Source: Candidatus Sericytochromatia bacterium (GTDB taxonomy: Bacteria > Cyanobacteriota > Sericytochromatia > S15B-MN24 > UBA4093). From it: a stretch of DNA of 64,000 bases. The notes under the pieces were generated by a model, which did not search any database, had not been told where the DNA came from, and saw only the letters and a list, made by a program, of their open reading frames with translations. Made by a program: the position numbers and the translations under genes. Below, in pieces: positions 20,140 through 35,018 of the stretch; positions within the stretch are counted from its first letter, which is position 1; each line of letters begins with the position of its first letter. The stretch lies in the NCBI GenBank assembly GCA_036676455.1, contig JAKFCW010000116.1, forward strand, positions 67,555-131,554. The letters run 5' to 3'.

Positions 20140-20142
20140 GAC

Positions 20143-20340
20143 TCAGGCGATTTCGCAGAGGGCGTCGAGCGGCACCATGGTGGGCTCCGAACCGCTCAGC
20201 GGCGAGAGGCGGGCCTCTCGCTCGCTGACGATGGTCACCGCCAATCGACAGGCCTCACAACAATAACCGAGCCACTTGGACGCCCGCGTAAGCTTCCCCT
20301 TGCATTGCGGGCAGGCATAGGTGCGAATCATAGTCTCCAC
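20143..20340 (-). CDS. Small zinc-ribbon-like protein (CxxC…CCxxC)
   Basis: 65 aa with two Cys pairs (CPQC…CCEAC), convergent with the kinase gene. Only modest coding signal. Confidence 0.3.
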   Translation of the reverse strand: METMIRTYACPQCKGKLTRASKWLGYCCEACRLAVTIVSEREARLSPLSGSEPTMVPLDALCEIA

Positions 20341-20446
20341 CCTCCCGGAACAACCCTATCAGATCCTGCACCTCCTATGCCCGAGAAATATTACGTCAAG
20401 ATGACGAAATATTCTCCCCCCCGTGAAAGCTCGGCGAGGCCGAGGC

Positions 20447-20857
20447 TCAGGGACGAACCTGCAAGCGGAAGTCCAGCGGGGCGGAGGTTCCGTTGGGTTG
20501 CATGGCCGTGAACTGGTAGGATCCGGGCGTCTTGGGGGTGAACGAACCGGTGGCGGTGAAGGGCGCGAGCATGTCGGCGTAGGCCTTGTCCTTCTCGCCG
20601 GTGGCGATCGCCTTGACCATGATGGTCTTGGTGTCGGCATGCTCGACGAACTCGACCCCGCGGAAGGTCAGGCCGGCCTGGGGAAACGCCCCCGAGACCG
20701 TGAGAACCAGCCTCTGGCCGACCTTGGCCGAGGCCGGGACGTCGAGATGATCGACGTAGCCGTAGGTCGTGAAGGTCTTGTCCTGGCTCGGGCTCATCCA
20801 GCCTCCCATGGCGACGAGGAAGGTCGCGATCGTTGCGGTGACAGTGTTGAAAAACAT
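20447..20857 (-). CDS. Secreted hypothetical protein (signal peptide)
   Basis: An internal ATG gives MFFNTVTATIATFLVAMGG… (signal peptide), followed by a beta-rich ~110-aa domain. The ORF track starts further upstream at 20965. Confidence 0.5.
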   Translation of the reverse strand: MFFNTVTATIATFLVAMGGWMSPSQDKTFTTYGYVDHLDVPASAKVGQRLVLTVSGAFPQAGLTFRGVEFVEHADTKTIMVKAIATGEKDKAYADMLAPFTATGSFTPKTPGSYQFTAMQPNGTSAPLDFRLQVRP

Positions 20858-20952
20858 GCCTGGCTCCTTGAATGAAGAGGGCGGGGCCCCTCTATGGTAC
20901 CTGAAATCCCGGCAGTCGACAGCTTGCTCCGCGCATGCTAGGATCCCCCCCC

Positions 20953-21456
20953 ATGACGACCTCACCCCCGACGCCGGTTCCCTGGCGACACGAAGACTTC
21001 ATGCGCCTCGCCCTCGACGAGGCGGCGCGCGCCGCGGCGCTCGGCGAGATCCCCGTCGGAGCCGTGCTGGTCCACGAAGGCGAAGTCGTGGCGCGCGCCC
21101 ATAACACGCGCGAAACCCAGCACGATCCGCTCGGGCACGCCGAGTTGACCGCCCTGCGCGAGGGCGCCCGACGCCTCGGACGCTGGCGCCTCAGCGGCTG
21201 CACCCTCTACGTCACCCTCGAACCCTGCCCCATGTGCGCGCCAGCCCTGGTGCAAGCCCGGGTGGACCGGATCGTCTTCGCCGCCATGGACCCCAAGCTG
21301 GGCGCCGCGGGCACCGTCTTAAACCTGGTCGACCGCCCGGAGTTCAACCACCGCCCCGACGTCATCGCCGGCATCTGCGAGGAAGAGGCCCAAAGCGCCT
21401 TGAAACGCTTCTTCGGGCGAAGGCGGGCCGGAGAAATCCCCGGGTGGGCCGAATAG
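20953..21456 (+). CDS. tadA: tRNA-specific adenosine deaminase TadA
   Basis: CDA zinc motifs HAELTAL and TLEPCPMCAPAL. The size is typical of TadA. Confidence 0.85.
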   Translation: MTTSPPTPVPWRHEDFMRLALDEAARAAALGEIPVGAVLVHEGEVVARAHNTRETQHDPLGHAELTALREGARRLGRWRLSGCTLYVTLEPCPMCAPALVQARVDRIVFAAMDPKLGAAGTVLNLVDRPEFNHRPDVIAGICEEEAQSALKRFFGRRRAGEIPGWAE

Positions 21457-21522
21457 GGGCTTGCGCTTAAGAAGGGCTTATGCTAATGTAAACCCTTGCG
21501 CGGTCGAAACACGACCCCGTTT

Positions 21523-21604
21523 GGAGGGTATCCGAATGGTGAGGAGGCGCACTCGAAATGCGTTGCCCCGTAAGGGGTTGGGGGTTCGAGTCCCCTGCCC
21601 TCCG
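21523..21604 (+). tRNA. tRNA-Ser (anticodon CGA), class II with long variable arm
   Basis: A hand fold gives a consistent class-II cloverleaf: acceptor GGAGGGT/GCCCTCC; anticodon stem GCGCA/TGCGT with loop CTCGAAA (anticodon CGA); variable-arm stem-loop GCCCC-GTAA-GGGG; T-arm GGGGG-TTCGAGT-CCCCT; discriminator G; CCA not encoded. The D-arm fold is slightly irregular. Confidence 0.7.
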
Positions 21605-21613
21605 CTCCCACCA
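21551..21613 (+). repeat. attL: 63-bp direct repeat (tRNA-Ser 3' half from the anticodon loop through the 3' end plus 9 bp)
   Basis: ACTCGAAATGCGTTGCCCCGTAAGGGGTTGGGGGTTCGAGTCCCCTGCCCTCCGCTCCCACCA recurs exactly at 31902-31964. Confidence 0.85.
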
Positions 21614-21619
21614 ACACTA

Positions 21620-21660
21620 GATTTGAGCCCCTTGACCGATTCGGTCAGGGGGCTCAAATC
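21620..21660 (+). terminator. Long hairpin after the tRNA (TTTGAGCCCCttgaccgattcggtcaGGGGGCTCAAA)
   Basis: Inverted repeat read directly. A structurally analogous but sequence-diverged hairpin follows the attR copy (31971-32010). Confidence 0.5.
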
Positions 21661-21696
21661 TTGGCGGTTGCAAACATTCTGCAAACATTCTCGTTT

Positions 21697-22875
21697 TCAC
21701 CCGCTCCGGGAATTAGTTCTGACGGCCTGGTAAGCGGCATCCAATAACTCCATGGCTTGCTCTTGCGCCCCCGGCATGAGGTGCCCGTAGACATCCATGG
21801 TCGTGGAAACCTTGGAGTGCCCGAGACGCTTGCTAACGGTGAGGGGATCGATCTTCAGGTTGATGAGCTGCGAGGCATGAGTGTGCCGGAGTTCATGAAG
21901 CCGGAGCGGCGGAAGGCCCGCCTTCTTGAGCAATGGCTTCAAGCACTTGGTGAGGGCCATGGGGTTACACGGCGTACCGTCTGAGCTAGCGAGGACCAAG
22001 CCATGGTCTTGGTAGCCTGGACCGAACATGAGCCTTTGGCGGGCTTGCTCGGCCCGGTGCTGCTTTAGTGCCTCGACGGCCATGGCGGGAAGCGAGATTG
22101 TCCGGCGACTCCCGGCGGTCTTTGGCTCCTTGAAGCGAAACCCTCCGGCCTTCGTGACCTCCACCGCCTGATGAACGGTGAGATACCGGCGAGTAAGGTC
22201 TAGGTCTTGCCAGCGAAGCGCCGCAAGTTCGCCCCTGCGGAGCCCCGTCGTGACCGCCAAGACGATCGCGGTGTAGTGGGGGGACTCCTTGGCGACCTCC
22301 AGGAGCTTGTCCGCGTCCTCCTGACTCAGTGCCCGCATTTCACGTTCAGAGGCCCGTGGCGGCGTCACATCATCGGCCGGGTTCCGAGGTAGCAAGCGCC
22401 ACGTGACCGCTTGCTGTAGAGCGCAACGGAGGACCCTGTGATGATACAGGACCGTACTGGAGGAGAGCCCTCCCTTGCCATCCCGGCGACCGGTCTTTAA
22501 CGCCTCCGCATAGTATTTCTGAATGTGCGCTGGGCGGAGTTTCTCCATTCTCAATTGACCGAGTTGCGGTATGAGATGGGTGTGGACGATCTCAGCATAT
22601 CGCTCATAAGTCTTGGGTTGGACGTTCAGTGCCGCGCAATCCCGAAGCCATCGAGTCAAGAAATCACCAAGAGTCTCCCGGCCAGGCTCTACGAATTGCC
22701 CTGTATGAAGTTCATGGAGAAGCCGTGCAAGTTCGCGTTCGGCGTCTCGCTTTGTCCCATCAAACTTGACCGTTACTTGATTTCGGCCGCCATCCGCCTT
22801 CCGCTCCCCGTCATAAATGATATGCCATTTGTTTTTGTTGTTCTTACCTCTGCGCTGTCTGATATGTCCCTTCAT
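21697..22875 (-). CDS. int: Tyrosine-type site-specific integrase (phage integrase family)
   Basis: 392 aa. N-terminal SAM-like and core-binding domains. C-terminal catalytic domain with R…HELRHTHAS…Y (…LHELRHTHASQLI…VYGHL…). Adjacent to the tRNA. Confidence 0.9.
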   Translation of the reverse strand: MKGHIRQRRGKNNKNKWHIIYDGERKADGGRNQVTVKFDGTKRDAERELARLLHELHTGQFVEPGRETLGDFLTRWLRDCAALNVQPKTYERYAEIVHTHLIPQLGQLRMEKLRPAHIQKYYAEALKTGRRDGKGGLSSSTVLYHHRVLRCALQQAVTWRLLPRNPADDVTPPRASEREMRALSQEDADKLLEVAKESPHYTAIVLAVTTGLRRGELAALRWQDLDLTRRYLTVHQAVEVTKAGGFRFKEPKTAGSRRTISLPAMAVEALKQHRAEQARQRLMFGPGYQDHGLVLASSDGTPCNPMALTKCLKPLLKKAGLPPLRLHELRHTHASQLINLKIDPLTVSKRLGHSKVSTTMDVYGHLMPGAQEQAMELLDAAYQAVRTNSRSG

Positions 22876-24005
22876 GTCTCCTCCTTGCCGAGCGCCTCAT
22901 TTCCAGCCTTTGATTTTCGCCAATTCGATTGGGCCACCGTCTTGGCGCAACGTCGGCTGCAATACTTCGCCCGCCATGCACTGGATGCAAACGGCAACTG
23001 ACAACGCGCACAGCGGTAGACCCGGTTGTTTTCCGAAAAATCCTGGAGCGCCATGTAGGCGTAGTTTGATAGAAGCGAAGGGCCCCAAAGATACTGCTTT
23101 AACGTGCCATCGGGTTCTTCCTTAAGGACCGGCGACACGCTAGCAGCCCATCGATTCATGTGTTCAAGGCCTCTCCTACCGAGAATGCTTGCCTGTGCTA
23201 ACTCCGGGGAATCAGTAGGTTCTCCCGAGGTTTGTAAATGCATCCACTTGGTGAGGGCATCATAGGCAACATAGAAGGCTTCTACGGCCTCCAGGAAGGC
23301 GCTCAGGGGCTCCCGATACGAGCGAGCGATCGGATCCTCGGCGGTAGGGACTCTCGTAGGTCGAACATCTGCTGCGAAAAATGGATCCCACTTCTCTTCC
23401 AGGCTGTACAGGACGATCTCTCCGCTGTCCAGGTACTCCCAGTGAACGCCGTGGGGGCGACCGCCTAGCATGCCTTCCCCTAGCATCTCTTGGAAATCAA
23501 CAGGCACGGCAGTGTTGATCCGAACCTGACCGTGAAGAACCCGAAGGTTGTCTTTCCGCCTCGGGTAGACAAGGCTTTGCGTAACGCGGCCGAGGGAGTA
23601 TTCCGGCATCAACGCATGGAGAGGATACGTTGGATGAATCTTGTCCTCGCCCCCGATGCTGGAACTCGCGTCCATGACGACAGGGAAACAGACTTCAAGG
23701 GCCGACTGATGAAGTAGACCAAGAAGTCCGTTCTGGGAGCACCACTGGATGATCCGTGTTTCGGCCCCTTGTCTCTTCACATCCCGGAAAAGTTCAAGGA
23801 GTGATTGGTAGGACGGCGCAATCGACGCATTGGCTTTCTTGCTTAGCCCGTCTTCCCTTGCTCCCCGGCGGGACCAAGTCTTGTCATAGTCTTGCCACGG
23901 ATCATACACACTCAGTTCAGCGTCCGGGGCCGGCCGGATATATCCTCCCTCGATGCAATAGCGGTCAAACTTCCACCAAGTCCCTTGCCAAAGTCGATTA
24001 CTCAT
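22872..24005 (-). CDS. Island hypothetical protein with a C-terminal zinc-ribbon (CxxC…CxxxC)
   Basis: About 377 aa. C-terminus …YRCARCQLPFASSAWRAKYCSRRCAKT…. The stop overlaps the integrase start (ATGA). Lower-GC gene. An alternative TTG start lies at 24017. Confidence 0.55.
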   Translation of the reverse strand: MSNRLWQGTWWKFDRYCIEGGYIRPAPDAELSVYDPWQDYDKTWSRRGAREDGLSKKANASIAPSYQSLLELFRDVKRQGAETRIIQWCSQNGLLGLLHQSALEVCFPVVMDASSSIGGEDKIHPTYPLHALMPEYSLGRVTQSLVYPRRKDNLRVLHGQVRINTAVPVDFQEMLGEGMLGGRPHGVHWEYLDSGEIVLYSLEEKWDPFFAADVRPTRVPTAEDPIARSYREPLSAFLEAVEAFYVAYDALTKWMHLQTSGEPTDSPELAQASILGRRGLEHMNRWAASVSPVLKEEPDGTLKQYLWGPSLLSNYAYMALQDFSENNRVYRCARCQLPFASSAWRAKYCSRRCAKTVAQSNWRKSKAGNEALGKEET

Positions 24006-24020
24006 TCTCGTCCTCAACTA

Positions 24021-24054
24021 TGTAGATATCAATTAGCTAGTTGAACGATCTACA
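24021..24054. promoter_or_regulatory. Inverted repeat TGTAGAT-N20-ATCTACA in the divergent promoter region, a candidate operator for the adjacent XRE regulator
   Basis: 7-bp perfect inverted repeat read directly. It lies between the divergently transcribed island genes. Confidence 0.35.
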
Positions 24055-24114
24055 AAGCAACCTTACCATTACCGTTGTAAAGGAACAAGCCCTACTTAAA
24101 GGAGGCATGTGGAA

Positions 24115-24339
24115 ATGGCAGGGGAAACGTTGAAAGGCTGGAGGGCAAAGCGGGGATGGTCTCAATCCAAACTGGCAAAAGAATCCGGCCTGCACACGAC
24201 AACAATCAGCTTGCTGGAGTCCGGGCGCCTGAAGCCTTACCGAGTTCAGGCACAGAAACTTGCGGTAGCCTTTGGCGTCACGGAGGAGGAGGTGACGGCA
24301 CTGCTCGGGGGAGTTCAAGCCAACGGGAGGTCTTCATGA
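24115..24339 (+). CDS. XRE-family helix-turn-helix transcriptional regulator
   Basis: …GWSQSKLAKESGLHTTTISLLESG… HTH_3 signature. RBS AAAGGAGG upstream. A GTG at 24109 is an alternative start. Confidence 0.7.
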   Translation: MAGETLKGWRAKRGWSQSKLAKESGLHTTTISLLESGRLKPYRVQAQKLAVAFGVTEEEVTALLGGVQANGRSS

Positions 24340-24596
24340 ACAAGGCACCGGCGGTCCTGACCGTGGCGGAAGTCGCACAACGCCTCCGGCTTGGGCGAAA
24401 CAGTGTCTACGAGGCCATCCGTCGCGGAGTGATCCCTTCTCTCCGTGTCGGCCGACGAATTGTTATCCCCGCGATCGCCTTTGACCGTTTTCTCGAAGGC
24501 GCCGCCTGGGTGGACGTTTATAGGGCCACCGAGCTTGACCGAAAAGGAGGTCCCGCATCAGTCCCCCTTTATGGGCGCCGAACCCTTGGCGGCTGA
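24336..24596 (+). CDS. xis: Excisionase/AlpA-like helix-turn-helix DNA-binding protein
   Basis: 86 aa. …LTVAEVAQRLRLGRNSVYEAIRRGVIPSLRVGRRIVIP… (MerR-superfamily excisionase fold). The start overlaps the upstream stop (ATGA). Confidence 0.6.
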   Translation: MNKAPAVLTVAEVAQRLRLGRNSVYEAIRRGVIPSLRVGRRIVIPAIAFDRFLEGAAWVDVYRATELDRKGGPASVPLYGRRTLGG

Positions 24597-24842
24597 GCGC
24601 TTAACATTTACACCCCCTCCGCATTAACCCCGTAGATTACGTGAGCATGCCCGCCTAGCCCTGTGCCTGGCGGGCTGACTCCAACCGCTCTTCCTGGGCC
24701 TAGCAAGGCAGGGGAAGAGAAGTGCCCGGGTGTCGGCTACTGCACTTTACAAACCTATCTCGCGGCGGAGTGCCTCATCATCCTGCGGGTCCCGGCGATC
24801 GATCCCGGGCATACGCCCAACGTGCCAACGGAGACCTCGACC

Positions 24843-26207
24843 ATGGCCCTAGACGATTCGTCGCTCAGCAGATCGGCGATCGCCAAGATAGTGGATGATC
24901 TGGAAGTCCCCCCGGATCTCGAAGAAGGCTGCCGTCTACTTGCTGGCTTGCTTGCCAAGCGTCATGCCGGCAAAGTCACTTGGCAGAGTTATGTTGGTTT
25001 CCAGGGTCCGGGTCTCCCATGTTACGTTAATGCCTTCGTCCAAGGCCCAGCCGGAGTTGTGTTGTCCGCGCTCCGCTCAGAGGATTCGAGCAACGACCAC
25101 CAAGCACATCTCCAGAGTCAGTTTTTCGCCCTCCGGCATGCCGCGGTTGGCGAACGTGCGGTTTGCGGCAAGTTGCTGGACATGAACGGAGTCGTTGCAA
25201 TTCTCAAACCACCCTCTGAGGGCGATGTATACGACCTCCAGATCCTGGTAGGACCCCGGCAAGGGTCCCCATTACAAACAAGCGCCGATGGAGTATACCG
25301 CCTGAAAGTTCGCCTGGAGTCCGCTCGAACCAACGGCCGGACGCGATACCTCCGGGTGTCCGGTGTACATGCCTATCCGGATCTCGCCAACCTTCTCAGG
25401 TCCCGGATGAAAATCGACAACGGCAACCCGATCCGACTCCATCGAGTAATCGCCGCTTTGGCCGGCGCAAACCTACATGCTCGTGGCAACCATGGGCAGG
25501 AACAGCAAATCCATGTCCATCATCTGAACGGGGTCGGATTCGATTGTCGCTGGGAAAATTTGACGCCGCTACCAAGTACGCGACACCGCCAGCAGCACAG
25601 GGCCTGGGCGATCGAGGTCGGCCTTCCGCTCGAATCTCAACTTGGGCCGCATGCGCCCGACCTGGGCCCGGGGGGTGGATCGCTGTACTGGGGTGAGTGG
25701 AATGACACATGGTTTAGGGACACGACGCATGCGCGTCACATCGACCGCCAAAGGGTTACGACGAAGCCGGCTTCATGGGGGTTCTTTGGATCCGCGAGCC
25801 GAAAAGACCGGCGCCGCAGCCTTGATCGGCTGGCGATCGCCATACATGCCCATGGCGGGTGCATGGCGGTGGACGACTTGGTTCATGCACTTTTGCTTTC
25901 GCCATGCGATTCCAAGTCCGGAATCAGAAAGGTAATCATCCAGGCGGTCTCGGCCGAACTTGTCGAGAGCTTCTTTGAGGGGCGACGCCAAACCCTTTTC
26001 TTGCGGGCCACCCTAGTCACAAGGTTTCGGCGTAGAGTCATTCTGAACCGGATGCTACGGATCAGGCAGTTGCGCCTCGCAAACGACCTGGAAAACGTGT
26101 CTCGGTGGTTCCATGGGAAATACTCCCGCCGAAAGATAGCTCCCTACCTTAGACGGGTATGGGCTGGCTTCAGGCCAGCCCAGTCGGTTACTCGAAGTTA
26201 CGAATAG
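24843..26207 (+). CDS. Island-encoded HNH-endonuclease-domain protein (large, otherwise uncharacterised)
   Basis: About 454 aa from ATG 24843 (GGAGA RBS). HNH-like motif …IHVHHLNGVGFDCRWENLTPLPSTRHRQQH…. No other recognisable domains. The ORF track extends upstream to 24663. Confidence 0.55.
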   Translation: MALDDSSLSRSAIAKIVDDLEVPPDLEEGCRLLAGLLAKRHAGKVTWQSYVGFQGPGLPCYVNAFVQGPAGVVLSALRSEDSSNDHQAHLQSQFFALRHAAVGERAVCGKLLDMNGVVAILKPPSEGDVYDLQILVGPRQGSPLQTSADGVYRLKVRLESARTNGRTRYLRVSGVHAYPDLANLLRSRMKIDNGNPIRLHRVIAALAGANLHARGNHGQEQQIHVHHLNGVGFDCRWENLTPLPSTRHRQQHRAWAIEVGLPLESQLGPHAPDLGPGGGSLYWGEWNDTWFRDTTHARHIDRQRVTTKPASWGFFGSASRKDRRRSLDRLAIAIHAHGGCMAVDDLVHALLLSPCDSKSGIRKVIIQAVSAELVESFFEGRRQTLFLRATLVTRFRRRVILNRMLRIRQLRLANDLENVSRWFHGKYSRRKIAPYLRRVWAGFRPAQSVTRSYE

Positions 26208-26214
26208 TTACAGG

Positions 26215-26595
26215 CTACTCGTTGAATTCTCTGATCAAGTCCGCCACAGCGTCAGGCACCGAGACACTCCGGTTCTTTGGGTTCCGATAGAACTTATCAA
26301 GTCGCCCGGAGAACGCCTTGCCCAGAGCCAGGATGTTTTGCTGGGTATTCTCATCCGACAGATCGATATCCAGTCCACCTGCACCGGCGATGAGCGCGAC
26401 GAAGGCCCCCGCACACTGCGGGCGATCCGCGGCCTTCATCCTGACCCAGTCCTTGCCGTCAATCCGGGAGTTCTTGTCTAAATCAAACTGGCGGTTCATT
26501 TCATCGGCAAGAGGATTTGCCAAAGCGGGGCCAGAGAGGCCGCTAATGACGATCGCCGTCGCAACCACAAGGGACAGGTATGTTGGTCGAAGCAC
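26215..26595 (-). CDS. Secreted EF-hand calcium-binding protein
   Basis: 126 aa. Signal peptide (…VVATAIVISGLSGPALA). Canonical EF loop DLDKNSRIDGKD. GTG start with AGGAGGAAAG RBS. Confidence 0.55.
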   Translation of the reverse strand: MLRPTYLSLVVATAIVISGLSGPALANPLADEMNRQFDLDKNSRIDGKDWVRMKAADRPQCAGAFVALIAGAGGLDIDLSDENTQQNILALGKAFSGRLDKFYRNPKNRSVSVPDAVADLIREFNE

Positions 26596-26603
26596 CTTTC
26601 CTC

Positions 26604-27554
26604 CTAGTAATTAAAGTTTGCGGAAGCCGGGTTTGCGGTTTGCCAATACATGGACCTTTCATCAAAACCCGACTTGCCCCCTTGGCGGTGGTAAACGTAG
26701 TTCCCCGCCCAAGTCTCCCACCCGACCCCCGGGACGTAGCCTAGCCACTGGCCGTCATTGTCCGAGTCCTCCCAGGCGAACAGGATCAACCCCAAGCACT
26801 CCTCCCCGGTATCCGGGATGGTGATCGAGTAGCGGCCGTTTTCATCCACCCTGGCGGTCGCTATGAGCGACGGCCGGGCAGGAGGAACGTTGTTGATGAA
26901 GTCATTCACCCGGGTCTCGAAGTTGAGACAGCCACTGATCTTGTAGACCCCGATCATGGGGTGGGTCGTGCTGCCGGACACCTGCCCCTTGAAGGAAAAA
27001 GGAGGTCGCACTCCACCGGTGGAACCGGAGTCATCTCCGGAGTCTCCGCCTGAGTTCGAGGGTGGGACTATCGGTGTCGGCGTAGGAGTCGTACACGGCT
27101 CCGGAGTCGGCATCGAACTGGTTGCCTCCAGCGGAAGCAGGGGTACTCCATCTCCGCCGGCATTGAAGTTCAGGGCGCCGCTTGCTGCTCCTCCACGACC
27201 GTCTGAGACGATGGCCTGGACGGTGACCACGTAGGCGGCGCTCCGGGTAGCCGTCGCACTCCAGACGACCTCATTCCCGATCGTTGAAGAAAGGATCCCT
27301 TGATTCACGGACCAGCTAACCCGGAGCGGGTCACAGTCAGGATCACTGGCAAGGAGGCGCAGGGTAGCGGATCCGGAGGCCGTTTCGAACCGATGGGCCG
27401 AAAGGGAATGCAGGATGGGATCCCGGTTCGATAGGGGGGATTCAGATCCTTGGCCGGGGGGAGTAGTGGTTCCCCCATGGTTAACGATTGTCGTACCTAC
27501 GCAGCCCCCCAGGACCGCCACTGAGGCCGCTAGGACCCATGGAAGGCCTCGCAT
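26604..27554 (-). CDS. Lipoprotein with Ig-like/PKD-like domain and a Pro/Thr-rich linker
   Basis: Signal peptide with lipobox (…VAVLGGC), …LRVSWSVNQG… beta-sandwich-like segment, a PTPEPCTTPTPTPIVPP linker and a C-terminal domain of unknown function. Confidence 0.55.
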   Translation of the reverse strand: MRGLPWVLAASVAVLGGCVGTTIVNHGGTTTPPGQGSESPLSNRDPILHSLSAHRFETASGSATLRLLASDPDCDPLRVSWSVNQGILSSTIGNEVVWSATATRSAAYVVTVQAIVSDGRGGAASGALNFNAGGDGVPLLPLEATSSMPTPEPCTTPTPTPIVPPSNSGGDSGDDSGSTGGVRPPFSFKGQVSGSTTHPMIGVYKISGCLNFETRVNDFINNVPPARPSLIATARVDENGRYSITIPDTGEECLGLILFAWEDSDNDGQWLGYVPGVGWETWAGNYVYHRQGGKSGFDERSMYWQTANPASANFNY

Positions 27555-27563
27555 TTCGGACGC

Positions 27564-27989
27564 CTACTGTGCGCCGACTTGGGCGGTTCCATCGGCCTTT
27601 ACGACGAGGTTCTGGGATCCCTCTGCCGTCCCGCCCTTTTGGTCAGAGATCGAGACCTGGACGATGTAGGTCCCGGCGGTGGACGGAGGCGTCCAGTTGA
27701 CCACCCGGCCGGTATTCGTGCTTAAGGTCCCACCGGTGGCGGTCCATGTGTACTTCAGAATGTCGTTGTCCGGATCCACGGCGTCAATCGAGAAAGTAAT
27801 CGCTTGGCCGGGGGACGTGGTGTTGGTCGGGTTCGCCGTGAATGACATGATCGTCGGCTGGCGGTTGGTCCCGGCTGCCGAGCCACCGATTCCGGTAGCG
27901 TTGGTGATCTGGGTCTTGATGTCGCAGCCGGCGAGGGCCGGAAGAGCGATCATGGAGACGATGAGTGCGGCGGAGAGACGACGAGCCAT
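27564..27989 (-). CDS. Lipoprotein with PKD-like domain
   Basis: MARRLSAALIVSMIALPALAGC lipobox; …ITFSIDAVDPDNDILKYTWTATGG… resembles a PKD/Ig-like fold. The ORF track starts at 28037. Confidence 0.5.
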   Translation of the reverse strand: MARRLSAALIVSMIALPALAGCDIKTQITNATGIGGSAAGTNRQPTIMSFTANPTNTTSPGQAITFSIDAVDPDNDILKYTWTATGGTLSTNTGRVVNWTPPSTAGTYIVQVSISDQKGGTAEGSQNLVVKADGTAQVGAQ

Positions 27990-28143
27990 CGTGCGGATCC
28001 TTTCTGCATCCAAGCAATGATCCGGGACCGGTATCATCGAGTCCCGGAAGGGATAGCGAACCCTCGCTTGTTCCTCTGTGGTGAATTAAACCACCAATCC
28101 ATATGAACGAAACCTTAGCTACCATCCGGAGTGGAGGACGTTC

Positions 28144-28503
28144 ATGGACCTGCCCCCTTTCAGCAAAGCCATCAAAGCCCGGCGGAGCGAACTAAATTAC
28201 TCCTTGAAGGAGGCTTCCCGGCGAACGGGGATCCAGCCGAGCCGCCTCCATGACCTGGAGCAGGGCCGCAGTTCGACTACCGGGAAACCCACCGGGCCCT
28301 CCCGGGAGAACATCAAGAAGATCGCCAAGGGCTACCTCCTAGATGAAGCCTACCTACTCGACCTTTCCGGCCAGCCCAAACTCGACGCATCCACCTCCTC
28401 CGAGCGGCGGCTCCTAAGTCACTTCCGGGGACTGATTCCCGGTCACCAGGAGGCCATCCTTGCCCTGGTAGACCACCTTTACCGACTGGACCAGTCCCCA
28501 TAG
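28144..28503 (+). CDS. XRE-family helix-turn-helix transcriptional regulator
   Basis: …ARRSELNYSLKEASRRTGIQPSRLHDLEQG… HTH_3-like N-terminus plus a C-terminal extension. Confidence 0.6.
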   Translation: MDLPPFSKAIKARRSELNYSLKEASRRTGIQPSRLHDLEQGRSSTTGKPTGPSRENIKKIAKGYLLDEAYLLDLSGQPKLDASTSSERRLLSHFRGLIPGHQEAILALVDHLYRLDQSP

Positions 28504-28518
28504 ATCCAAAGCGCCGTC

Positions 28519-29433
28519 TCAGGCCTCCAGGGCCCTCCTGACGGTCTCCTCGCTGACCACCGCATAGCGCTGGGTGGTTTGGAGGTTCCGGTGCCCAAGG
28601 ACCTTCTGGACGACTTCCACCGGCTTCCCCTCGTTGATCAGCCGGGTCGCGTAGGTGTGCCGGAGCTGATGAATGGTCGCCTCGACCCCGGCCGCCCGGC
28701 AGTAGCGTTGCCAAGCTTTCTGGATGACCGAGTAGTGGATCGGAGCGCCGGCAGTTCCGTTCCGGCGTTTGCTCTCGTTCGGCCGGAACAAGAGTCCCCG
28801 GCCGGTGATCGTCTCGCCGTCGCCGGCAAGCCAACCTTGCGAGCGGAGGTAGCGCCGGAGCATGCTGTAGCTTTCAGTCTTGATGAGGTAGATGGTCCTC
28901 TCCCGGCCACCCTTTCCGATGATCGTGATCTCCTGGGCCGCCATCCGGATCTGCTCCAGGCGGACGGAAAGGATCTCCGAGACCCGAGCACCGGTATCCG
29001 CCAGGAGCTGAAAGATCAGGCGGTCCCGCTTGTCCTTGATGATCCGGAGAACTGCCTGGACCTCCCCGGATCGCATGGCTCGGGGTTGGGCCTCCGGGAC
29101 ATTGATCCGGGGAAGGCGCTCAACCGGATTGGCCGGCAGGAGGTCTCCCTGGACGCACCACCGGAGAAAGGCAGACAAGGCTGAGCGATGCCGGGCCATG
29201 GTTGCCGGCGATCGACCTTGTAAAGACCGAAGGTAGTCGCGGACCACTTGGACAGAGAGCGCCCCGATTTCGCCCTTGTAGAAGGTCATGAAGGTCTGGA
29301 GGTTGCTTTGGTAGCCCCGGAGGGTCTCCGGTCTGTTTCCCTCCACCCGGAGGTCGGCCAGGAAGTCGTTAAGTAGAGTCTCCAGGGAGGCTCGCCGGCA
29401 ACCCGGCAGACCCGTATGCAGGATCCTTGGCAT
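28519..29433 (-). CDS. Tyrosine recombinase XerC/XerD-like (second island recombinase)
   Basis: N-terminal SAM-like domain (…LETLLNDFLADLRVEGNRPETLRGYQSNL…). Catalytic residues …R…HQLRHTYATRLI…LGHRNLQTTQRYA…. The ORF track begins at 29553; a probable internal ATG start lies at 29433. Confidence 0.8.
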   Translation of the reverse strand: MPRILHTGLPGCRRASLETLLNDFLADLRVEGNRPETLRGYQSNLQTFMTFYKGEIGALSVQVVRDYLRSLQGRSPATMARHRSALSAFLRWCVQGDLLPANPVERLPRINVPEAQPRAMRSGEVQAVLRIIKDKRDRLIFQLLADTGARVSEILSVRLEQIRMAAQEITIIGKGGRERTIYLIKTESYSMLRRYLRSQGWLAGDGETITGRGLLFRPNESKRRNGTAGAPIHYSVIQKAWQRYCRAAGVEATIHQLRHTYATRLINEGKPVEVVQKVLGHRNLQTTQRYAVVSEETVRRALEA

Positions 29434-29651
29434 GTGGTCCTCCTCGTTGTGCGTGGTAACGATAAGAAGGGGATCCGGGTTGTGGGACCGGAAGGCTTGG
29501 TGCCATCTCGCGGGTCCTCCGGAGTGTGCGCGGCAATGTTCATTACCGCGCACATTGCCCAGATTGTGTGGCCTACCTCATGGCATATTGGGGACGAAGG
29601 CCTGGAGATGGCTTCACCCACACGCGCCCATGCAAGGCAAGGAGACCCCCT

Positions 29652-29816
29652 ATGAGCCCCTCGTACCAAGAATTGCTTGCGCAGAACGTCGCCCTTAAGC
29701 AGGAACTTCAGCGTGCCACCGAGATCATCAACCGGCTGAGAGCCGAAAATGACGAACTCCGGAGGCGCCAGGGCGGCGATGGACTGGACGGTTTGCTTGG
29801 CCGGCTAGGGCGTTAA
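29652..29816 (+). CDS. Small coiled-coil protein
   Basis: 54 aa (MSPSYQELLAQNVALKQELQRATEIINRLRAENDELRRRQ…) with a strong RBS, AAGGAGA. Heptad-like pattern. Confidence 0.4.
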   Translation: MSPSYQELLAQNVALKQELQRATEIINRLRAENDELRRRQGGDGLDGLLGRLGR

Positions 29817-30020
29817 TACCTTCAAGGCCTCTGCGAGCCGTCAGTTCTCGCGGAGGCCTTGTGGTCCTTGCTATCGCCCTTGCGCTGGTTGGCCTCGAAC
29901 CTTGCCATCCGTCGCTCGATCTCCTGGAGCAATTCATCGAGTTCTACGGAGATTGCTTCCAAGTCGATGGGAACTTCAACCTCCTGGAGACTCTCCTCCG
30001 ACTCCTTCAGGGGACCTCCG

Positions 30021-30278
30021 CTATGACTGCCGGATCTGATCCCCAGGCTCCGTCTTGGGACCGAATACGGCGAACCCCCTGCCCATGGCCACCCCTGCAA
30101 CAAAGGACCGCTCAGCGATCGTCCGACTCCGCTCTAGGTGAAGCTGATGAAGTTGCTCGATCTCCTTCTGGTAGTCCGGCGACAGCACCTCTCGGAGGCA
30201 GTCCAGGCGGCCCGCAATGTCTACGATGAACCGATCGTTCACTTCGGCAAGCATGTCTTCGATGACCTCAAGACACAT
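30021..30278 (-). CDS. Small hypothetical protein; it may be fused by a frameshift with ORF 29822..30103
   Basis: 85-aa ORF. Partly overlaps a second minus-strand ORF in another frame (29822..30103, acidic coiled-coil-like). Weak evidence. Confidence 0.3.
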   Translation of the reverse strand: MCLEVIEDMLAEVNDRFIVDIAGRLDCLREVLSPDYQKEIEQLHQLHLERSRTIAERSFVAGVAMGRGFAVFGPKTEPGDQIRQS

Positions 30279-30552
30279 ATTGATCCTCCCTCAATAGTTG
30301 CAAGGCAGACGGGACACCCGGCCGGAGGCCATCCGGCGTGTGAGAGACGGGACATGGCAAACCACCCCCTTGGTTATCCAATATCGACGGTATTGCCACT
30401 AGGTAGAAAACATTCAAGCGTGCCGTTACAGGCACTCGACAGGGTCGTACTTTTGAGATGACTCGTTAGGCAGCATTGGGAACCATCGTTTTGATGGCAG
30501 AAGAGGCGGGTAAGTAATCAAGGGTTATCAGACCTTATGCAAGGACAATGCA

Positions 30553-31752
30553 ATGAATCGACGAAATGCGACGGCTGTCTCCCTGATCGCTCTTACCTTA
30601 GGTATTGGCATCATTGCCGGGTGCGCCGACTTACAAGGTGTATTGACCGGCTCGACGCAGGATCAATCCCAAGGCTCTTTTGGAAAGGTACTTTTCCAAA
30701 TTGCTTTGCCCAGCAGCGAACGACAGATTGCGGGCGTGCTGGATGTAGTCGATCGAATCGAATTGTCTCTGTCAGGTTCAGCCCTAAGCACTCCGTTATC
30801 TTCGACGATTAGCAAGTCCGAGATTTCTAGTGGTGGAGCTTCGGCAACAATCGAACGAGTTCCCCCCGGACAGCTGTTACTTTCGGCGTCCGTACTGGAC
30901 GGTATAGGGAACGTACTAGCAACCGGTTCGGCACCAGTAACCGTCGTAGCAGGGCGTCAAGCCACAGCCAACATGACGTTAACAATTCCAACCACAGGAT
31001 CGGTCGGTTCAACGATCACGTTGGAGGAAGGCTCGCCAGTTCCAGGGGCTAGTCCAAGTCCTTCATCATTTAGCTTTAGCCCCACGGCACAGCTCACTGG
31101 CAAGATCACGTATGACGGTTCCCCCCTTGAGTTTGCGGACGATAACTACGATCCGGTAATGAAGATCAAGGAGCCAGGCTTGACCCTATTGGGTCATTCC
31201 TCAGCAGTGTTTGAGAATCAGTACTTTCAGTATGTTGGCTTAACCGAGAGTAAGCCATATCAGGTTGTTTGGGACTATCAAGGACAGCCCCCGGCTAGTG
31301 CAGCGGCAATTAATACTATTAGGCTATTTGTCTCGGACCCTATTACCGCTTCCGCCGTCGCAGTAGACCCCATGGTCGCCATGGACATCATGTGGGAAAC
31401 GAAGGCTTCACCGAACTATGGAGCATACATCCATCCAACGACCGATAACCCTGTCAGCTTCAGCTTTAGCAAAGTCCCTCATTTAGACGCCGAGTATCAG
31501 GTAGATGTCTTTGACGTGAACGGTGCTAGGCAGTGGTCGTCAGCTTGGCTTACAAGTTCTTCCGTGTCTTGGAATGGGCGCAAAGGAACGGAAACGAACA
31601 CCCCTACTGGAGCAGAGATTTCGCCTGGTTCCTATTCCTACTCGATCAAGTTCCGTAAGGTGGGTGGGACATTTGGTGGAGCAAATTATTACGGGGAGTC
31701 TTTCAGAATTCCGCTCCAGAAGTCGCTCAGTGGGCCTGTAATAAATGATTGA
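30553..31752 (+). CDS. Lipoprotein of unknown function in a low-GC patch
   Basis: 399 aa. Signal peptide with lipobox (…LGIGIIAGC). Ser/Thr/Gly-rich and beta-rich. The gene and its upstream region are markedly AT-richer than the flanks. Confidence 0.6.
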   Translation: MNRRNATAVSLIALTLGIGIIAGCADLQGVLTGSTQDQSQGSFGKVLFQIALPSSERQIAGVLDVVDRIELSLSGSALSTPLSSTISKSEISSGGASATIERVPPGQLLLSASVLDGIGNVLATGSAPVTVVAGRQATANMTLTIPTTGSVGSTITLEEGSPVPGASPSPSSFSFSPTAQLTGKITYDGSPLEFADDNYDPVMKIKEPGLTLLGHSSAVFENQYFQYVGLTESKPYQVVWDYQGQPPASAAAINTIRLFVSDPITASAVAVDPMVAMDIMWETKASPNYGAYIHPTTDNPVSFSFSKVPHLDAEYQVDVFDVNGARQWSSAWLTSSSVSWNGRKGTETNTPTGAEISPGSYSYSIKFRKVGGTFGGANYYGESFRIPLQKSLSGPVIND

Positions 31753-31901
31753 GTGGCGTATTACTAGCAAACCGTTTGCAAACGAACTCTTTGGCACGAG
31801 GGAGCAACTAGCGGGATTATTTGGGACTCAGGTTCCGCCAAATCGAGATTAGACGGGACTCACGAAACCGTCTTGGGAATAGGGGGGATAGGGGCCATCA
31901 G

Positions 31902-31964
31902 ACTCGAAATGCGTTGCCCCGTAAGGGGTTGGGGGTTCGAGTCCCCTGCCCTCCGCTCCCACCA
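31902..31964 (+). repeat. attR: 63-bp direct repeat (partial tRNA-Ser 3' half, no 5' half)
   Basis: Identical to 21551-21613. The 28 nt upstream do not form a tRNA 5' half. Confidence 0.85.
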
Positions 31965-31970
31965 GTAATC

Positions 31971-32010
31971 GCTTAGAGCCCCCGGCCGAATCGGCCGGGG
32001 GCTCTAAGCC
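31971..32010 (+). terminator. Perfect 18-bp hairpin GCTTAGAGCCCCCGGCCG aat CGGCCGGGGGCTCTAAGC downstream of attR
   Basis: Read directly. Likely the original tRNA-Ser terminator. Confidence 0.55.
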
Positions 32011-32052
32011 TATTGGCCCTACCCGGGCTGACCCGGGAGGCGAGCGACCGTG

Positions 32053-32502
32053 CTAGTGGCCGGCGTGATCGCTGCTGCCCACGCGTGCGGCCTCCTCCCC
32101 ATGCGGGATGAGCCAGTTGATGAAGTGGTAGTGGGGCTCGGGCACGCCGGGATGGCCGGGATTGTACGCGATATCGGTATGGTCGATCGATAGGCCCGCC
32201 GCCGCGCCGCCGACATTGGTCCAGTTCTTGCGCTCATTGAGCTGCGAGAGCGGAAGCATGTAGGTGATGTTGGTCAACTTCCCCTTGCGATCGTAGCCCA
32301 GAAACGGGCCAGCAGGCAGGGTCTTGGGATCGACGTACAAGGTGCCGTAGCCGGGCAGGAATTCCGGAAGCTGGACGAGCGTGCTCACCTTCTTGAAGTT
32401 CGCAGGCGGCTTGGTCATCACGTCGCTCTTGGCGAGGGCTTGGCTCGCGCCGGTCGCGAGAAGCGCTCCGGTGACCAGCAATGCAGGCAGGATGGTTCTC
32501 AT
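32053..32502 (-). CDS. Secreted hypothetical protein
   Basis: 149 aa from an internal ATG (RBS AGGAGAA): MRTILPALLVTGALLATGASQALA signal peptide, then a His-rich C-terminus. The 331-aa ORF in the track is an upstream read-through artefact. Confidence 0.5.
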   Translation of the reverse strand: MRTILPALLVTGALLATGASQALAKSDVMTKPPANFKKVSTLVQLPEFLPGYGTLYVDPKTLPAGPFLGYDRKGKLTNITYMLPLSQLNERKNWTNVGGAAAGLSIDHTDIAYNPGHPGVPEPHYHFINWLIPHGEEAARVGSSDHAGH

Positions 32503-32790
32503 CACAATTCTCCTAAGCATGAGCAGGGAAGGCGATGGAAAGCCGGCGCCTGGAGATCCAGGCAGCAAGAACCCATCTTGAATGTTCATTAAAATACATA
32601 ACATACTCTTGCTCGCTTCAGCAAGGAACGGAGGGGGCAGCGTCAAACCGACGAAGAAGGCTGCCATCGCTGGACGGGCTGGACGCTGCCCAGGGTTTCT
32701 CAAAGCGGCTATGGTTCGGTGAGTGCAGCGAGCTCCGAGGGGGACATCCCGCCTGGAGCGTGACGCCAGCAAGACCAAAGGAGGCGAGGA

Positions 32791-33484
32791 GATGCAGAGC
32801 GTGTTGGAGCGGCGAGCGGAGACAGCGACGGCCCTGCCGCAGCTGTCGACGGAAGCATCCCCATGGAATTGGCTAGAGGCGAGGCGGATCGGCGGGGCTG
32901 TGATCGCCTTGCAAGGCGCCCGCTGGCTCGCGACCCGACTTAACCAGCGCTCGGTGCCGCCGACGCGTACCGGCGGCATGCTCGGAGACCTCGCCGGAGG
33001 GCTGGGCCGTGGGCTCGTCGCGGGAGCCGTGGGCACGGTGATCATCACCGCGGCTGCGGCGGCCCATCAGCAGATCAAGAGCCGCCTGAAGGCCAAGCCC
33101 GGCGAAGCGAAGCCCCCCACCGATCTCTTCCAGGTCCTCATCGGTCCCTGGCTCTTTTCCGCCGATGCCGTCAGCAAGGTTATGGGCGGCCTCACGCCCA
33201 AGGACGAGGCCGCGAAACGGCGCCTGGCCCTGGCTGCCCACGTGGGTTACGGCAGCGCTTGGGGGATGAGCCTGGCCGCCCTGTCGCTCGCGGGCATCCG
33301 GGGACCCGCGGCCATGGGAGTCCTGCTCGGGGGGGTCCTGGGCGCCGAGATGGCCTTGATGCCCCGGGCCGGGTTCTTTCCGCCGGTCGGGCAGTGGGGG
33401 ACCGAGGCCGTGATCAGTAGCACCTACCAGCACGCCCTCTACGCGATCGCCGCGGGGCTCACCTTCGACCTGCTGGAGCGGTGA
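32791..33484 (+). CDS. Hypothetical membrane protein (Gly/Ala-rich TM helices)
   Basis: ATG 32791 preceded by AAAGGAGGCGAGGAG. Several GxxxG-rich hydrophobic segments. Confidence 0.45.
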
Positions 33485-33831
33485 GGTCCTGCCTTGGCAC
33501 TACCACCGACGCCTGATCTCCGAATGCCTAGTCGCCAAGGGCCACGAGGTCTATGACATCGTCAGCGAGGCCCCGCCCCGCCTGCACCGGCTCTCGCCCT
33601 TTGCTGTCAAGGCGGGCCCCTGCGTGATCTACCCCGAAGAGCGCGACTCCTGAGGGCCGTTCCGGCTCCGGCTCGATGGTTAACTATTGGTTAATCTTTA
33701 CTTAGATTGAGATTAAAATTCGCGGCTATTCGGCTCGCCGAGCGCCCTTGAGGGGAGATGCCCCCTTAAGCAAGTGACAACGTATTCATCACGACCTGTT
33801 AATCAGCATCATCCCTCCTTAACAAAAAGAA

Positions 33832-34452
33832 GTGAGCATGAAGAAGAGCATTCCTTTCCTCCTGGCGGCGCTGCTGGCCGGTTGCGCGGCCCCGGGAACC
33901 ATGGGCGGGCTCTCGCTGACCGGGCCCGGATCCTTCACGGCGGACGACGTCCTCCTGGACGCCCAGTACATGAAGTGGTGGGTCGATCGCCCCGTCACGC
34001 AGGCGGATGTCGAGTTCCTGGCCCGCGCGATCTCCGCCGAGGCGCGCGGCGAGGTGACCCGCTACAAGAAATCCGGCGACGCCTCCGTCAAGAAATCCGT
34101 GCAGGGAGTGGCCTACGTCATCGCCCGCACGGCCGCGGTCCGCAAGCAGAGCGTCGAGGGCCTGATCAAGGGTCAGTCCGACTTCCTCTCCTCCTGGCAC
34201 CTCCAGAACCGGGCCGGAAACGCGGAGAATTACCGCCAGTTCTTCCTGCCGACCCAGAAGATCGTCTACTGGGACGAGCTCTGCGGGATCGCCCGGACCG
34301 CCCTGGAGGGCCAGGATCCCACGGGCATCGATCCCAACCACTTCTACGACGTCTCCATCGCCCATCGGCCGCCCCGCTGGGCCGTCGGTTCCGGCGTCTC
34401 GAAGCGCCAGCTCGGCCGGATGATCTTCGTCTACACGCCGAAGGACATCTAG
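33832..34452 (+). CDS. Cell-wall hydrolase, SleB/CwlJ (Hydrolase_2) family lipoprotein
   Basis: Lipobox LLAGC. …LARAISAEARGE…VQGVAYVIARTA… matches the SleB catalytic-domain pattern. Confidence 0.65.
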   Translation: MSMKKSIPFLLAALLAGCAAPGTMGGLSLTGPGSFTADDVLLDAQYMKWWVDRPVTQADVEFLARAISAEARGEVTRYKKSGDASVKKSVQGVAYVIARTAAVRKQSVEGLIKGQSDFLSSWHLQNRAGNAENYRQFFLPTQKIVYWDELCGIARTALEGQDPTGIDPNHFYDVSIAHRPPRWAVGSGVSKRQLGRMIFVYTPKDI

Positions 34453-34505
34453 CCCCCGCCTGAAGACCCGGCATGGCCCTACACAGAAAGGACCGAGAAA
34501 TCTCC

Positions 34506-35018
34506 ATGAAACGGTTACTGAGCCTCTCGCTGCTGGCGCTGACGCTGGCAGGCTGCGGGCAGCAGCCCCTGGCCCCGGCTACCGTCACGACCTCCACCAC
34601 GGAGACCGTGAGCGCGCAGGACGTCAACCTGGTCAAGAGCCAGATCAAGCAGCTGGTAAAGGTCTACTTCCGCTACCTCGATGACAACAACGACGGCCGG
34701 GTGAGCAAGAAGGAGCTCGCGAAGAACGCGCCGGGTCCCTTCTTCATGCGCCCCTACTTCGACAAGAACAACGACGGCTACCTCAGCTACGACGAGTTGC
34801 TCCAGATGATGGGGACCACGGTGCACACCGCGGCGAAGCTGCTCTACACCGTCTGCGACACCGACTTCGACGGCCGCGTCACGCGCGACGACATCAAGCT
34901 GGTGCCCTTCGCCAAGTACTTCTTCACCCTGGCCGACAAGAACGACGACGGCGTCATTTCGCTGACCGAGTTCGAGAAGCTTGTGACCAGCATCGGTCTC
35001 GTCAAGAACCCCTTCTAG
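34506..35018 (+). CDS. Secreted lipoprotein with four EF-hand calcium-binding motifs
   Basis: MKRLLSLSLLALTLAGC lipobox. EF loops DDNNDGRVSKKE, DKNNDGYLSYDE, DTDFDGRVTRDD and DKNDDGVISLTE. Confidence 0.7.
   Translation: MKRLLSLSLLALTLAGCGQQPLAPATVTTSTTETVSAQDVNLVKSQIKQLVKVYFRYLDDNNDGRVSKKELAKNAPGPFFMRPYFDKNNDGYLSYDELLQMMGTTVHTAAKLLYTVCDTDFDGRVTRDDIKLVPFAKYFFTLADKNDDGVISLTEFEKLVTSIGLVKNPF

Follow-up and report, generated by a model that had tools for sequence, protein, structure and literature searches.

A probable integrative element in the tRNA-Ser(CGA) gene of a Sericytochromatia-like bacterium, carrying genes of rare families

Introduction

What has placed a second, incomplete copy of a tRNA gene about 10 kb from the intact one in the genome of an uncultured bacterium? 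The question is raised by a stretch of 64,000 nucleotides from Candidatus Sericytochromatia bacterium (GenBank assembly GCA_036676455.1, contig JAKFCW010000116.1, positions 67,555 to 131,554; hereafter the window), in which an earlier note, made from the sequence alone, had proposed an integrative island in a tRNA-Ser(CGA) gene. The account that best fits the data is that a site-specific integrative element of 10,351 bp, a genomic island, occupies the tRNA-Ser(CGA) gene of this Sericytochromatia-like bacterium, a reading to which we give a probability of about 0.8 from sequence comparisons. It is a genuine integrase-mediated tRNA island of an ordinary general kind, several of whose genes come from rare, uncharacterised families.

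A duplicated tRNA 3' part bounds the element

The only tRNA gene that ARAGORN called in the window is an intact tRNA-Ser(CGA) on the forward strand (21523-21605), which Rfam likewise recovers as its single tRNA (RF00005, 21523-21604, 37.9 bits), with no other non-coding RNA in the window. This gene is the putative integration target and represents the attB side of attL. A repeat search of the window paired 21551-21631 with 31902-31982, and the first 63 nt of the two copies (21551-21613 and 31902-31964, both on the forward strand) are identical, with a mismatch from the very next base. The identical block reaches from the last pair of the anticodon stem to a point 8-9 nt beyond the acceptor end of the tRNA, and would form the attL core on the left and the attR core on the right. 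The right-hand copy is a 5'-truncated tRNA 3' part: neither ARAGORN nor Rfam calls a tRNA there, and no tRNA 5' half was found upstream of it by ARAGORN or by sequence comparison. With 63 of 63 positions matching and a single tRNA call, the duplication stands as the earlier note had described it. With up to three mismatches allowed, the window contains exactly two occurrences of a 23-mer taken from the repeat, and 100 shuffles contain none; at the same tolerance there is no extra core copy, as an older, second att scar, to the right of attR. Identity running from the anticodon loop to the tRNA 3' end is also found in tRNA islands and prophages with lambda- or P4-type integrases (the anticodon-loop att class), and partial-tRNA att scars are a general feature of tRNA-integrated elements. 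Composition changes between the repeats as well, where GC content is 0.579 versus 0.656 and 0.661 in the flanks; the low-GC patches reported earlier reappear as minima at about 22.5-24.2 kb and 30.3-31.9 kb, and the lowest values fall on two of the genes described below, p377 (0.556) and lip399 (0.513).

A repeat of this kind might also be spurious, created by a chimeric assembly or a local tandem duplication, and the behaviour of short-read contigs at the locus bears on this. Logan contig L001 (SRR17380412) matches window 21594-31931 at 100%, beginning inside the attL core at 20 nt from its right end and stopping 30 nt into the attR core, while Logan contig L024 (SRR34789595) matches 19354-21613 at 99.9% and ends at the final base of the 63-bp core. 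Both therefore break in or at the edge of the repeat, where the assembly graph branches; short-read graphs break at repeats. A further Logan contig (L002, SRR34789591) is 99.8% identical to window 7292-14280, including an 894-aa PPDK_N/PEP-utilizers gene, and the three matches together indicate that the same or a very close strain is present in at least three sequencing runs. The breakage of contigs at the repeat is what an artefact has in its favour. Against it, three independent assemblies are concordant, an independent JGI contig (L025, below) shows the same structure, and the two copies share only 63 bp between unrelated flanks, which also removes the earlier note's own proviso that the repeat might belong to a larger tandem duplication. 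An artefactual origin is accordingly next to inconceivable.

Occupied and unoccupied sites in related genomes

The comparison set comprised three related genomes. An exact 32-mer spanning the T-arm and acceptor of the tRNA was searched in one genome per GTDB species; most matches were Planctomycetota tRNAs, and one match, in Candidatus Sericytochromatia bacterium LC028 (L006), was syntenic. This genome aligns to window 17257-20932 at 80%, to 20940-21656 at 84% and to 33678-35476 at 82% identity, and it has tadA and the tRNA-Ser, with 63-64 bp identical to the core; a hairpin comes immediately after the tRNA, and the DNA beyond the hairpin is unrelated. As tblastn with all island proteins found none of them in L006, which nevertheless has the core, its site is read as unoccupied. 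The same site is occupied in L025, which was reached through a search for homologues of the island protein p454: its flanks are 79-92% identical to the window, and its tRNA-Ser holds the island just as that of the window does, the cores lying at 6391 and 17976. Over 63 bp there is no difference among the five cores (attL and attR of the window, attL and attR of L025, attB of L006), and divergence starts exactly at both edges. Presence of the island therefore varies at one site, empty in L006 and occupied in L025, and the check that the earlier note had suggested, a search of relatives for an uninterrupted site, came out in its favour. Look-ups by exact protein yielded only short Logan contigs broken at the repeat, and no paralogues of island genes occur elsewhere in the window.

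The DNA to the right of the element is itself changeable. Window 31965-33678 is replaced in L006 by 1.5 kb of unrelated open reading frames (ORFs; L006 1854-3354). Two genes right of attR, rf148 (32053-32499, reverse strand) and rf253 (32786-33484, forward strand), are common to the window and L025 (17926-21035), and L025 loses synteny after rf253 (DUF488, HhH-GPD). Taken together, the turnover in L006 and the loss of synteny in L025 suggest that the tRNA-Ser neighbourhood is a plasticity hotspot extending beyond the att-bounded island.

The hits of the 32-mer in metagenome-assembled genomes (MAGs) of Planctomycetota lie among contigs L003-L023. Four contigs of one such MAG, MB_PLM_2, contain the 32-mer, each at about 125 nt or less from the end of the retrieved stretch; in contig L008 the tRNA and a partial copy stand 1.6 kb apart (2345-2402 and 3936-3992), and in contig L015 (3725-4695) a tyrosine recombinase lies about 200 bp from the tRNA. 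These arrangements suggest that tRNA-Ser is also an integration target in this other phylum.

The integration module and its attachment sites

The gene next to the intact tRNA encodes Int, a tyrosine integrase of 392 aa (21697-22875, reverse strand; Phage_integrase 1.7e-25, Phage_int_SAM_3 1.3e-14, phrog_1 2.4e-80), in whose translation the R..HxxR..H..Y signature can be read and in which, by eye, a putative N-terminal arm-binding segment precedes the SAM_3 and catalytic domains. Its 3' end points toward the tRNA and lies 84 nt from the attL core; with the two cores, this bears out the proposal of site-specific integration into the 3' part of tRNA-Ser(CGA) by an integrase beside the intact gene. 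The adjoining gene, p377 (22872-24005, reverse strand), overlaps int by 4 nt, indicating that the two form an operon, and encodes an orphan protein with a C-terminal Cys4 Zn-ribbon whose four cysteines are invariant in five homologues. No family match for p377 was obtained in Pfam, PHROGs, PADLOC or NCBIfam, and its AlphaFold2 model is poor (predicted local distance difference test, pLDDT, 57), with no structural match. Its homologues are more informative. In JGI contigs L027 and L028, a homologue (29% identical) overlaps the start of a SAM_3 integrase abutting tRNA-Arg(ACG), opposite an HTH_17 gene (L027 10001-12472), and in an IMG/VR sequence (L029, 919-3329) another stands beside a large serine recombinase. 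Given this placement beside integrases, p377 would be an accessory of the integration module, whatever the class of recombinase.

Divergent from p377-int is a pair of forward-strand genes that overlap by 4 nt: xre74 (24115-24339), which encodes an XRE-family helix-turn-helix (HTH) regulator of 74 aa (HTH_31 and HTH_3, both about 1e-10) and is also called as a gene in L001, and xis (24336-24596), which encodes an excisionase-type HTH_17 protein of 86 aa (PF12728 1e-13; TIGR01764 'excise' 44.6 bits against a cutoff of 28.8). An excisionase-like HTH protein, two XRE regulators and a second recombinase had all been named in the earlier note, and each is matched by a profile; the second XRE regulator and the second recombinase, a Xer-like gene of 304 aa, lie further to the right.

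Both ends of the element carry structures that may serve integration. A GC-rich hairpin with 21-nt arms that are 95% complementary (21619-21661) follows directly on the rebuilt tRNA within the island, and in an alignment it is similar to the native post-tRNA hairpin of each of the three genomes (window, L025 and L006); it is presumably a replacement terminator that keeps 3' processing or termination of the tRNA. The native hairpin of the window would have been displaced to the right of attR (31971-32009), where its 19-nt arms are 100% complementary. Between the left hairpin and the end of int sits an exact tandem of the 11-mer TGCAAACATTC (21669-21690, forward strand), found by Tandem Repeats Finder and the repeat search and regarded as a candidate arm-type binding site for Int or Xis. 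An overlapping inverted pair of TGCAAACG (31773-31784), found by motif search 118 nt ahead of attR, is a candidate for the corresponding right-end site. All five matches to TGCAAACR in the 64 kb fall inside the island, four of them within 170 bp of a core, and the motif is kept in the L025 island, at the left end in the att alignment and at the right end as judged by eye. The likely arm sites are the TGCAAAC repeats close to the two ends.

That Int integrates the element at the 63-bp core, and that the reaction is reversed with Xis, is proposed from this anatomy and from what is established about tRNA-targeting tyrosine integrases. Int would have recombined the 63-bp core of attP with the identical attB in the tRNA gene, the element bringing its own tRNA 3' part and a hairpin resembling a terminator, such that the tRNA would stay functional, and a dead 3' fragment would be left at attR. 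The xre74-xis operon, divergent from p377-int, would act as the switch for excision to a circle of 10.35 kb.

p454 and the surface-protein genes

Starting 247 nt after xis, p454 (24843-26207, forward strand) encodes a candidate DNA-processing enzyme of 454 aa in which an HNH motif is combined with an alpha/beta domain at the N-terminus and a winged helix at the C-terminus. The earlier note had listed an HNH-domain protein here; the domain is upheld by matches to the HNH_3 family, and the length is corrected from 514 to 454 aa. The family is very small: a word-indexed search gave four proteins, 1.84 billion representatives contained 25 clusters at E<1e-10, and a metagenome scan with the p454 profile returned only a compost contig and one HNH fragment. 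HNH_3 is matched in 11 of 27 family members (best 4.2e-10), H226, H227, G232 and H248 are invariant, the C-terminal winged helix is ArsR/MarR-like, and the N-terminal stretch of about 200 residues has a confidently predicted fold (pLDDT about 90) that matches no solved structure. The contexts in which p454 occurs are those of integrative elements, and an excisionase-type HTH_17 gene is linked to it every time. Phage homing endonucleases of the HNH_3 type share with p454 the His/Asn signature, the invariant His and a separate DNA-binding domain, but p454 differs from them in its N-terminal domain of about 200 aa, its ArsR/MarR-like winged HTH, its linkage to HTH_17 and its belonging to a very rare family.

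To the right of p454 lie three reverse-strand genes for exported proteins. The first encodes p126, a small secreted protein of 126 aa (26215-26595) recognised as an ORF with an N-terminal hydrophobic segment, taken as a signal peptide. It has no family in Pfam, PHROGs or NCBIfam, and the EF-hand label first given to it lacks support, as no EF-hand profile of Pfam matches and an EF-loop-like motif is visible only by eye. A protein with three EF-hand motifs does occur outside the island, in the conserved right flank (33838-35018), where a 204-aa lipoprotein is accompanied by one of 181 aa (EF-hand_5 2.6e-19). The other two are the PKD-like lipoproteins of the earlier note, a description that Pfam matches support: Big316 (26604-27554; lipobox LGGC), with a Big_9 Ig-like domain (2.2e-5) and a C-terminal beta-rich domain, is 92% identical in L025, and PKD141 (27564-27989; lipobox LAGC; Big_9 2.8e-9, PKD 1.7e-7) is 97% identical there. 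Divergent from these two lipoprotein genes on the forward strand is XRE119 (28144-28503; HTH_19 and HTH_3), an XRE-family regulator that is 99% identical in L025.

The second tyrosine recombinase, Xer304 (28519-29433, reverse strand; 304 aa; Phage_integrase 2.9e-33, SAM_1 5e-9), is Xer-like in its domains. Identity with the chromosomal XerC or XerD is not supported, the scores lying under the NCBIfam equivalog cutoffs (161 versus 335 bits for XerC, 148 versus 330 for XerD and 168 versus 220 for XerA), and the protein also falls below the cutoff for integron integrases. A part in phase variation through an invertible promoter was rejected: only short, imperfect inverted repeats within coding sequence were found, and promoter and terminator scans gave results at chance level. 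Beyond Xer304 lies a variable segment (29434-30552) with small ORFs only, as called in L001: two of 73 and 54 aa on the forward strand, and o85 (30021-30278) on the reverse strand, which is 64% identical in L025. The last gene, lip399 (30553-31752, forward strand; 51% GC; lipobox IAGC), encodes a lipoprotein that has no family in Pfam, PADLOC or NCBIfam scans; it is absent from L025 and appears to be a strain-specific addition.

Related elements and the status of the cargo

The earlier note regarded these inner genes as cargo, a view that holds only in part, as the xis-p454 pair, the XRE119-type regulator and, in one case, the PKD/Big pair recur in distant elements. A 9.8-kb Logan contig (L026) carries HTH_17, p454 (36% identical), an XRE regulator, PKD141 (70%) and Big316 (52%) in the same relative arrangement. 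A 5.4-kb ENA contig (L030), whose end is a T-arm-like sequence, has HTH_17, p454 (35%), o85 (38%) and XRE119 (71%) facing a gene for a secreted 237-aa protein, with a different, unrelated SAM_1 tyrosine recombinase at the position that corresponds to Xer304. In a third contig (L037), an XRE119 homologue (70%) lies in a region rich in insertion sequences (IS) and terminal inverted repeats, facing a membrane protein and a lipoprotein; every XRE119 relative compared thus faces genes for secreted, membrane or lipoproteins. The L037 lipoprotein (8606-9466) is 26% identical (6e-11) to the N-terminal 160 or so residues of lip399, and an XRE119-type regulator with a surface lipoprotein may therefore be a recurring unit. 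From this recurrence in distant elements it follows that much of the supposed cargo, comprising the Xis-p454 pair, a second recombinase beside XRE119 and the surface-protein slot presumably under XRE119 control, travels with the element, and that two features, the pairing of xis with p454 and the XRE119-type regulator opposite genes for secreted proteins or lipoproteins, are probably part of the backbone and not of the cargo.

The same contigs bear on whether the island is the remnant of a prophage, a larger temperate phage that has lost its structural genes. Its phage-type integrase (phrog_1), excisionase and XRE repressor-like genes would suit such an origin, as would the finding that in L027 the p377-int module closes off a larger element that also has N6 methyltransferase and HTH_23 genes. 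However, L026 and L030 share the same non-phage genes and have no structural genes within 5-10 kb, no PHROG structural or lysis match was obtained in the island, and all ORFs are intact in two lineages (ratio of nonsynonymous to synonymous divergence, dN/dS, 0.05-0.44), with att cores that are perfect in both. Decay from a prophage is therefore very unlikely.

On the more speculative side, p454, with its HNH motif and winged helix, might nick or cut the excised circle at a specific site for the start of replication or for handover to a helper, Xer304 might resolve multimers, and XRE119 might control the divergent PKD/Big lipoprotein genes and so alter the surface of the host.

Missing gene classes and comparison with known elements

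The statement that replication, packaging and conjugation genes are lacking holds across Pfam, PHROGs, NCBIfam and PADLOC. No island ORF matched capsid, terminase, portal, tail or lysis genes in Pfam or PHROGs, and scans with Pfam and NCBIfam found no relaxase, type IV secretion system or coupling protein (T4CP), FtsK/SpoIIIE-type Tra protein, primase, helicase or Rep family, including RepSA and RepAM. An origin of replication marked by iterons was rejected, as the only tandem repeats are the 11-mer at the att arm and trivial ones. A defence island was also rejected: PADLOC reported no defence system, its one result being a marginal ZorE HNH match to p454 (E 0.0015, 15.7 bits). In IMG/VR, p454, XRE119 and Big316 have no relatives, p377 has a single distant match in a 5-kb uncultivated virus genome, and Int has matches of 25-30% only. 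With nothing recognisable encoded for passage between cells, the element would have to rely on a helper (a phage or a conjugative element), on vesicles or on transformation.

Dependence on a helper phage is the essence of one alternative, a phage satellite similar to P4 or to the phage-inducible chromosomal islands (PICIs), which would stay silent until the helper arrives and then be excised, replicated and packaged, with p454 acting in cos-type cutting or in replication. PICIs are described as integrase-bearing islands of 10-20 kb, and the island resembles such satellites in its size of about 10 kb, its site-specific integrase and xis, its divergent repressor/xis (XRE/xis) control region and its possession of an HNH nuclease. 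PICI-type satellites, however, have a replication module plus terS or a capsid gene, whereas primase, helicase and small terminase are all missing from the island, as are capsid, capsid-redirecting and interference genes and any PHROG structural match. With the IMG/VR results giving no viral support and no helper phage known, we consider a satellite quite improbable.

A helper of the conjugative kind is invoked by another alternative, in which the island is an integrated plasmid-like or mobilisable element (IME) that replicates through p454, is transferred by a co-resident conjugative system and uses Xer304 as multimer resolvase. Two recombinases of different architecture would suit a pair for integration and resolution, a site-specific DNA-binding nuclease could nick an origin, and the element family is small and free of phage genes. 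The absence of a relaxase, T4CP, FtsK/SpoIIIE-type Tra protein or known Rep family tells against it, as does that of iterons or tandem repeats beyond the att arms, and HNH enzymes are not known to serve as relaxases or replication initiators. On balance this alternative is doubtful, and 'mobilisable', as the earlier note called the island, is a guess: the analysis turned up neither a relaxase nor an oriT, which can be recognised only where the helper is known, nor any excised form.

Comparison with described elements places the island within a general kind and outside the named families. It shares with tRNA islands and prophages the integrase beside an intact tRNA, the excisionase, the direct repeats, the deviant composition and the variable presence; it differs in that the rest of its gene set matches no described island, phage or family of integrative and conjugative elements (ICEs), and in its host, an uncultured Sericytochromatia-like lineage. 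Tycheposons, known from Prochlorococcus and other marine bacteria, are defined by an inward-facing integrase, hallmark replication genes common to the group and a recombinase specific to their lineage; they resemble the island in their integrase, tRNA target, size of 10-20 kb, modular cargo, partial-tRNA flanks and contribution to island hotspots (here the hotspot continues to the right of the tRNA beyond the element), whereas int of the island points outward to the tRNA and no polymerase, primase or helicase is present. Actinomycete ICEs (AICEs) such as pSAM2 (10.9 kb) carry RepSA/RepAM replication genes and a transfer protein with an FtsK-SpoIIIE domain; pSAM2 is nearly equal in size, integrates into a tRNA gene and has int-xis and a compact modular layout with regulators, whereas the island has neither RepSA/RepAM nor the FtsK-SpoIIIE protein and belongs to a different host phylum. 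On the defining features compared, the element fails to qualify as a prophage, an ICE or AICE, a PICI-type satellite or a tycheposon. It is tempting to place it in a rare family of small integrative elements yet to be described, as the member that is best preserved, with the excisionase-linked p454 for its hallmark, a non-HUH site-specific nickase that would start replication or transfer of the excised circle, a lipoprotein slot controlled by XRE119, and p377 as a new sort of accessory, a directionality or targeting factor, of tyrosine and serine recombinases alike, but we hold this to be improbable as it stands.

Divergence between two occupied genomes

Comparison of the window with L025 separates the island into parts that have diverged to different degrees. 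Synonymous divergence (dS) of ten flank genes ranges from 0.20 to 0.53 (median 0.40), and that of the int-p377-xre74-xis module from 0.25 to 0.55 (median 0.45), versus only 0.045-0.245 (median 0.10) in p454-p126-Big316-PKD141-XRE119-Xer304, a contiguous, internal block of 4.6 kb. The contrast with the flanks is significant for the block (Mann-Whitney U=2, p=0.001) and not for the left module (p=0.37), and sliding identity is 94-99% over 25.95-29.25 kb versus 71-96% in the flanks. Other parts have been lost, gained or replaced: 29554-30153 cannot be aligned with L025, as a segment has been replaced; window 30387-31852, with lip399, is missing from L025; and L025 carries between p126 and Big316 an IS21-family element (IstA/IstB; 11421-13842) with a 6-bp target duplication, CGAAGC, that is absent from the window. 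The L025 orthologues contain no stop codon, and their dN/dS shows the island genes to be intact and under purifying selection at the level of sequence.

The low dS points to recent exchange of the p454-Xer304 block. In the simplest reading, the element was inherited or separately acquired in the two lineages and its inner part was recently swapped with another copy; a recent replacement of the inner block by recombination with another copy would mean that island DNA still moves between these bacteria. The perfect, non-functional attR in both lineages points the same way. An alternative explanation of the same data is a fixed, domesticated island that goes back to a single integration event before the window and L025 lineages parted and is now immobile, with the low-dS block produced by ordinary homologous recombination. 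The shared site in both genomes and the agreement of int-module dS with the flanks would fit, as would the failure to find an attP junction, the mark of the excised form, in IMG/VR. Yet the non-functional attR is still identical at 63 of 63 positions in both lineages despite a flank divergence of about 10-20%, int and xis are intact and constrained, and internal turnover has continued (lip399, the IS21 element, the replaced segment at 29.55-30.15 kb). Fixation seems unlikely.

Several points weigh against the reading of the island as a site-specific integrative element. The int-proximal module has diverged as much as the host flanks, and the insertion may therefore be older than the split between the window and L025 and vertically inherited; the dS of the flanks is itself heterogeneous (0.20-0.53), such that its contrast with the low-dS block is significant without being overwhelming. 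The empty site in L006 is no clean footprint, as L006 and the window also disagree over the 1.5-1.7 kb that lie right of the tRNA, and neither an attP junction nor a clean attB junction was found from the same population, IMG/VR likewise lacking the former. No recognisable replication or transfer gene was found with Pfam, PHROGs or NCBIfam. Finally, the roles proposed for p454, p377 and Xer304 are hypotheses that, like the arm-site role of TGCAAAC, have neither experimental nor homology-based precedent here.

Significance

Sericytochromatia are a little-studied, non-photosynthetic sister group of the Cyanobacteria whose mobile DNA is almost undescribed. The defined Int/Xis pair with its 63-bp att site is a possible integration tool for such bacteria, and the analysis flags two orphan families that travel with integration modules, the integrase-linked p377 and p454 with its HNH motif and winged HTH, for both of which biochemical tests would be cheap; the practical value is modest unless one of these two proves to have a new activity. 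For the biology of the group, the island is an instance of gene flow of the ordinary, integrase-mediated sort at a tRNA hotspot of a Sericytochromatia lineage.

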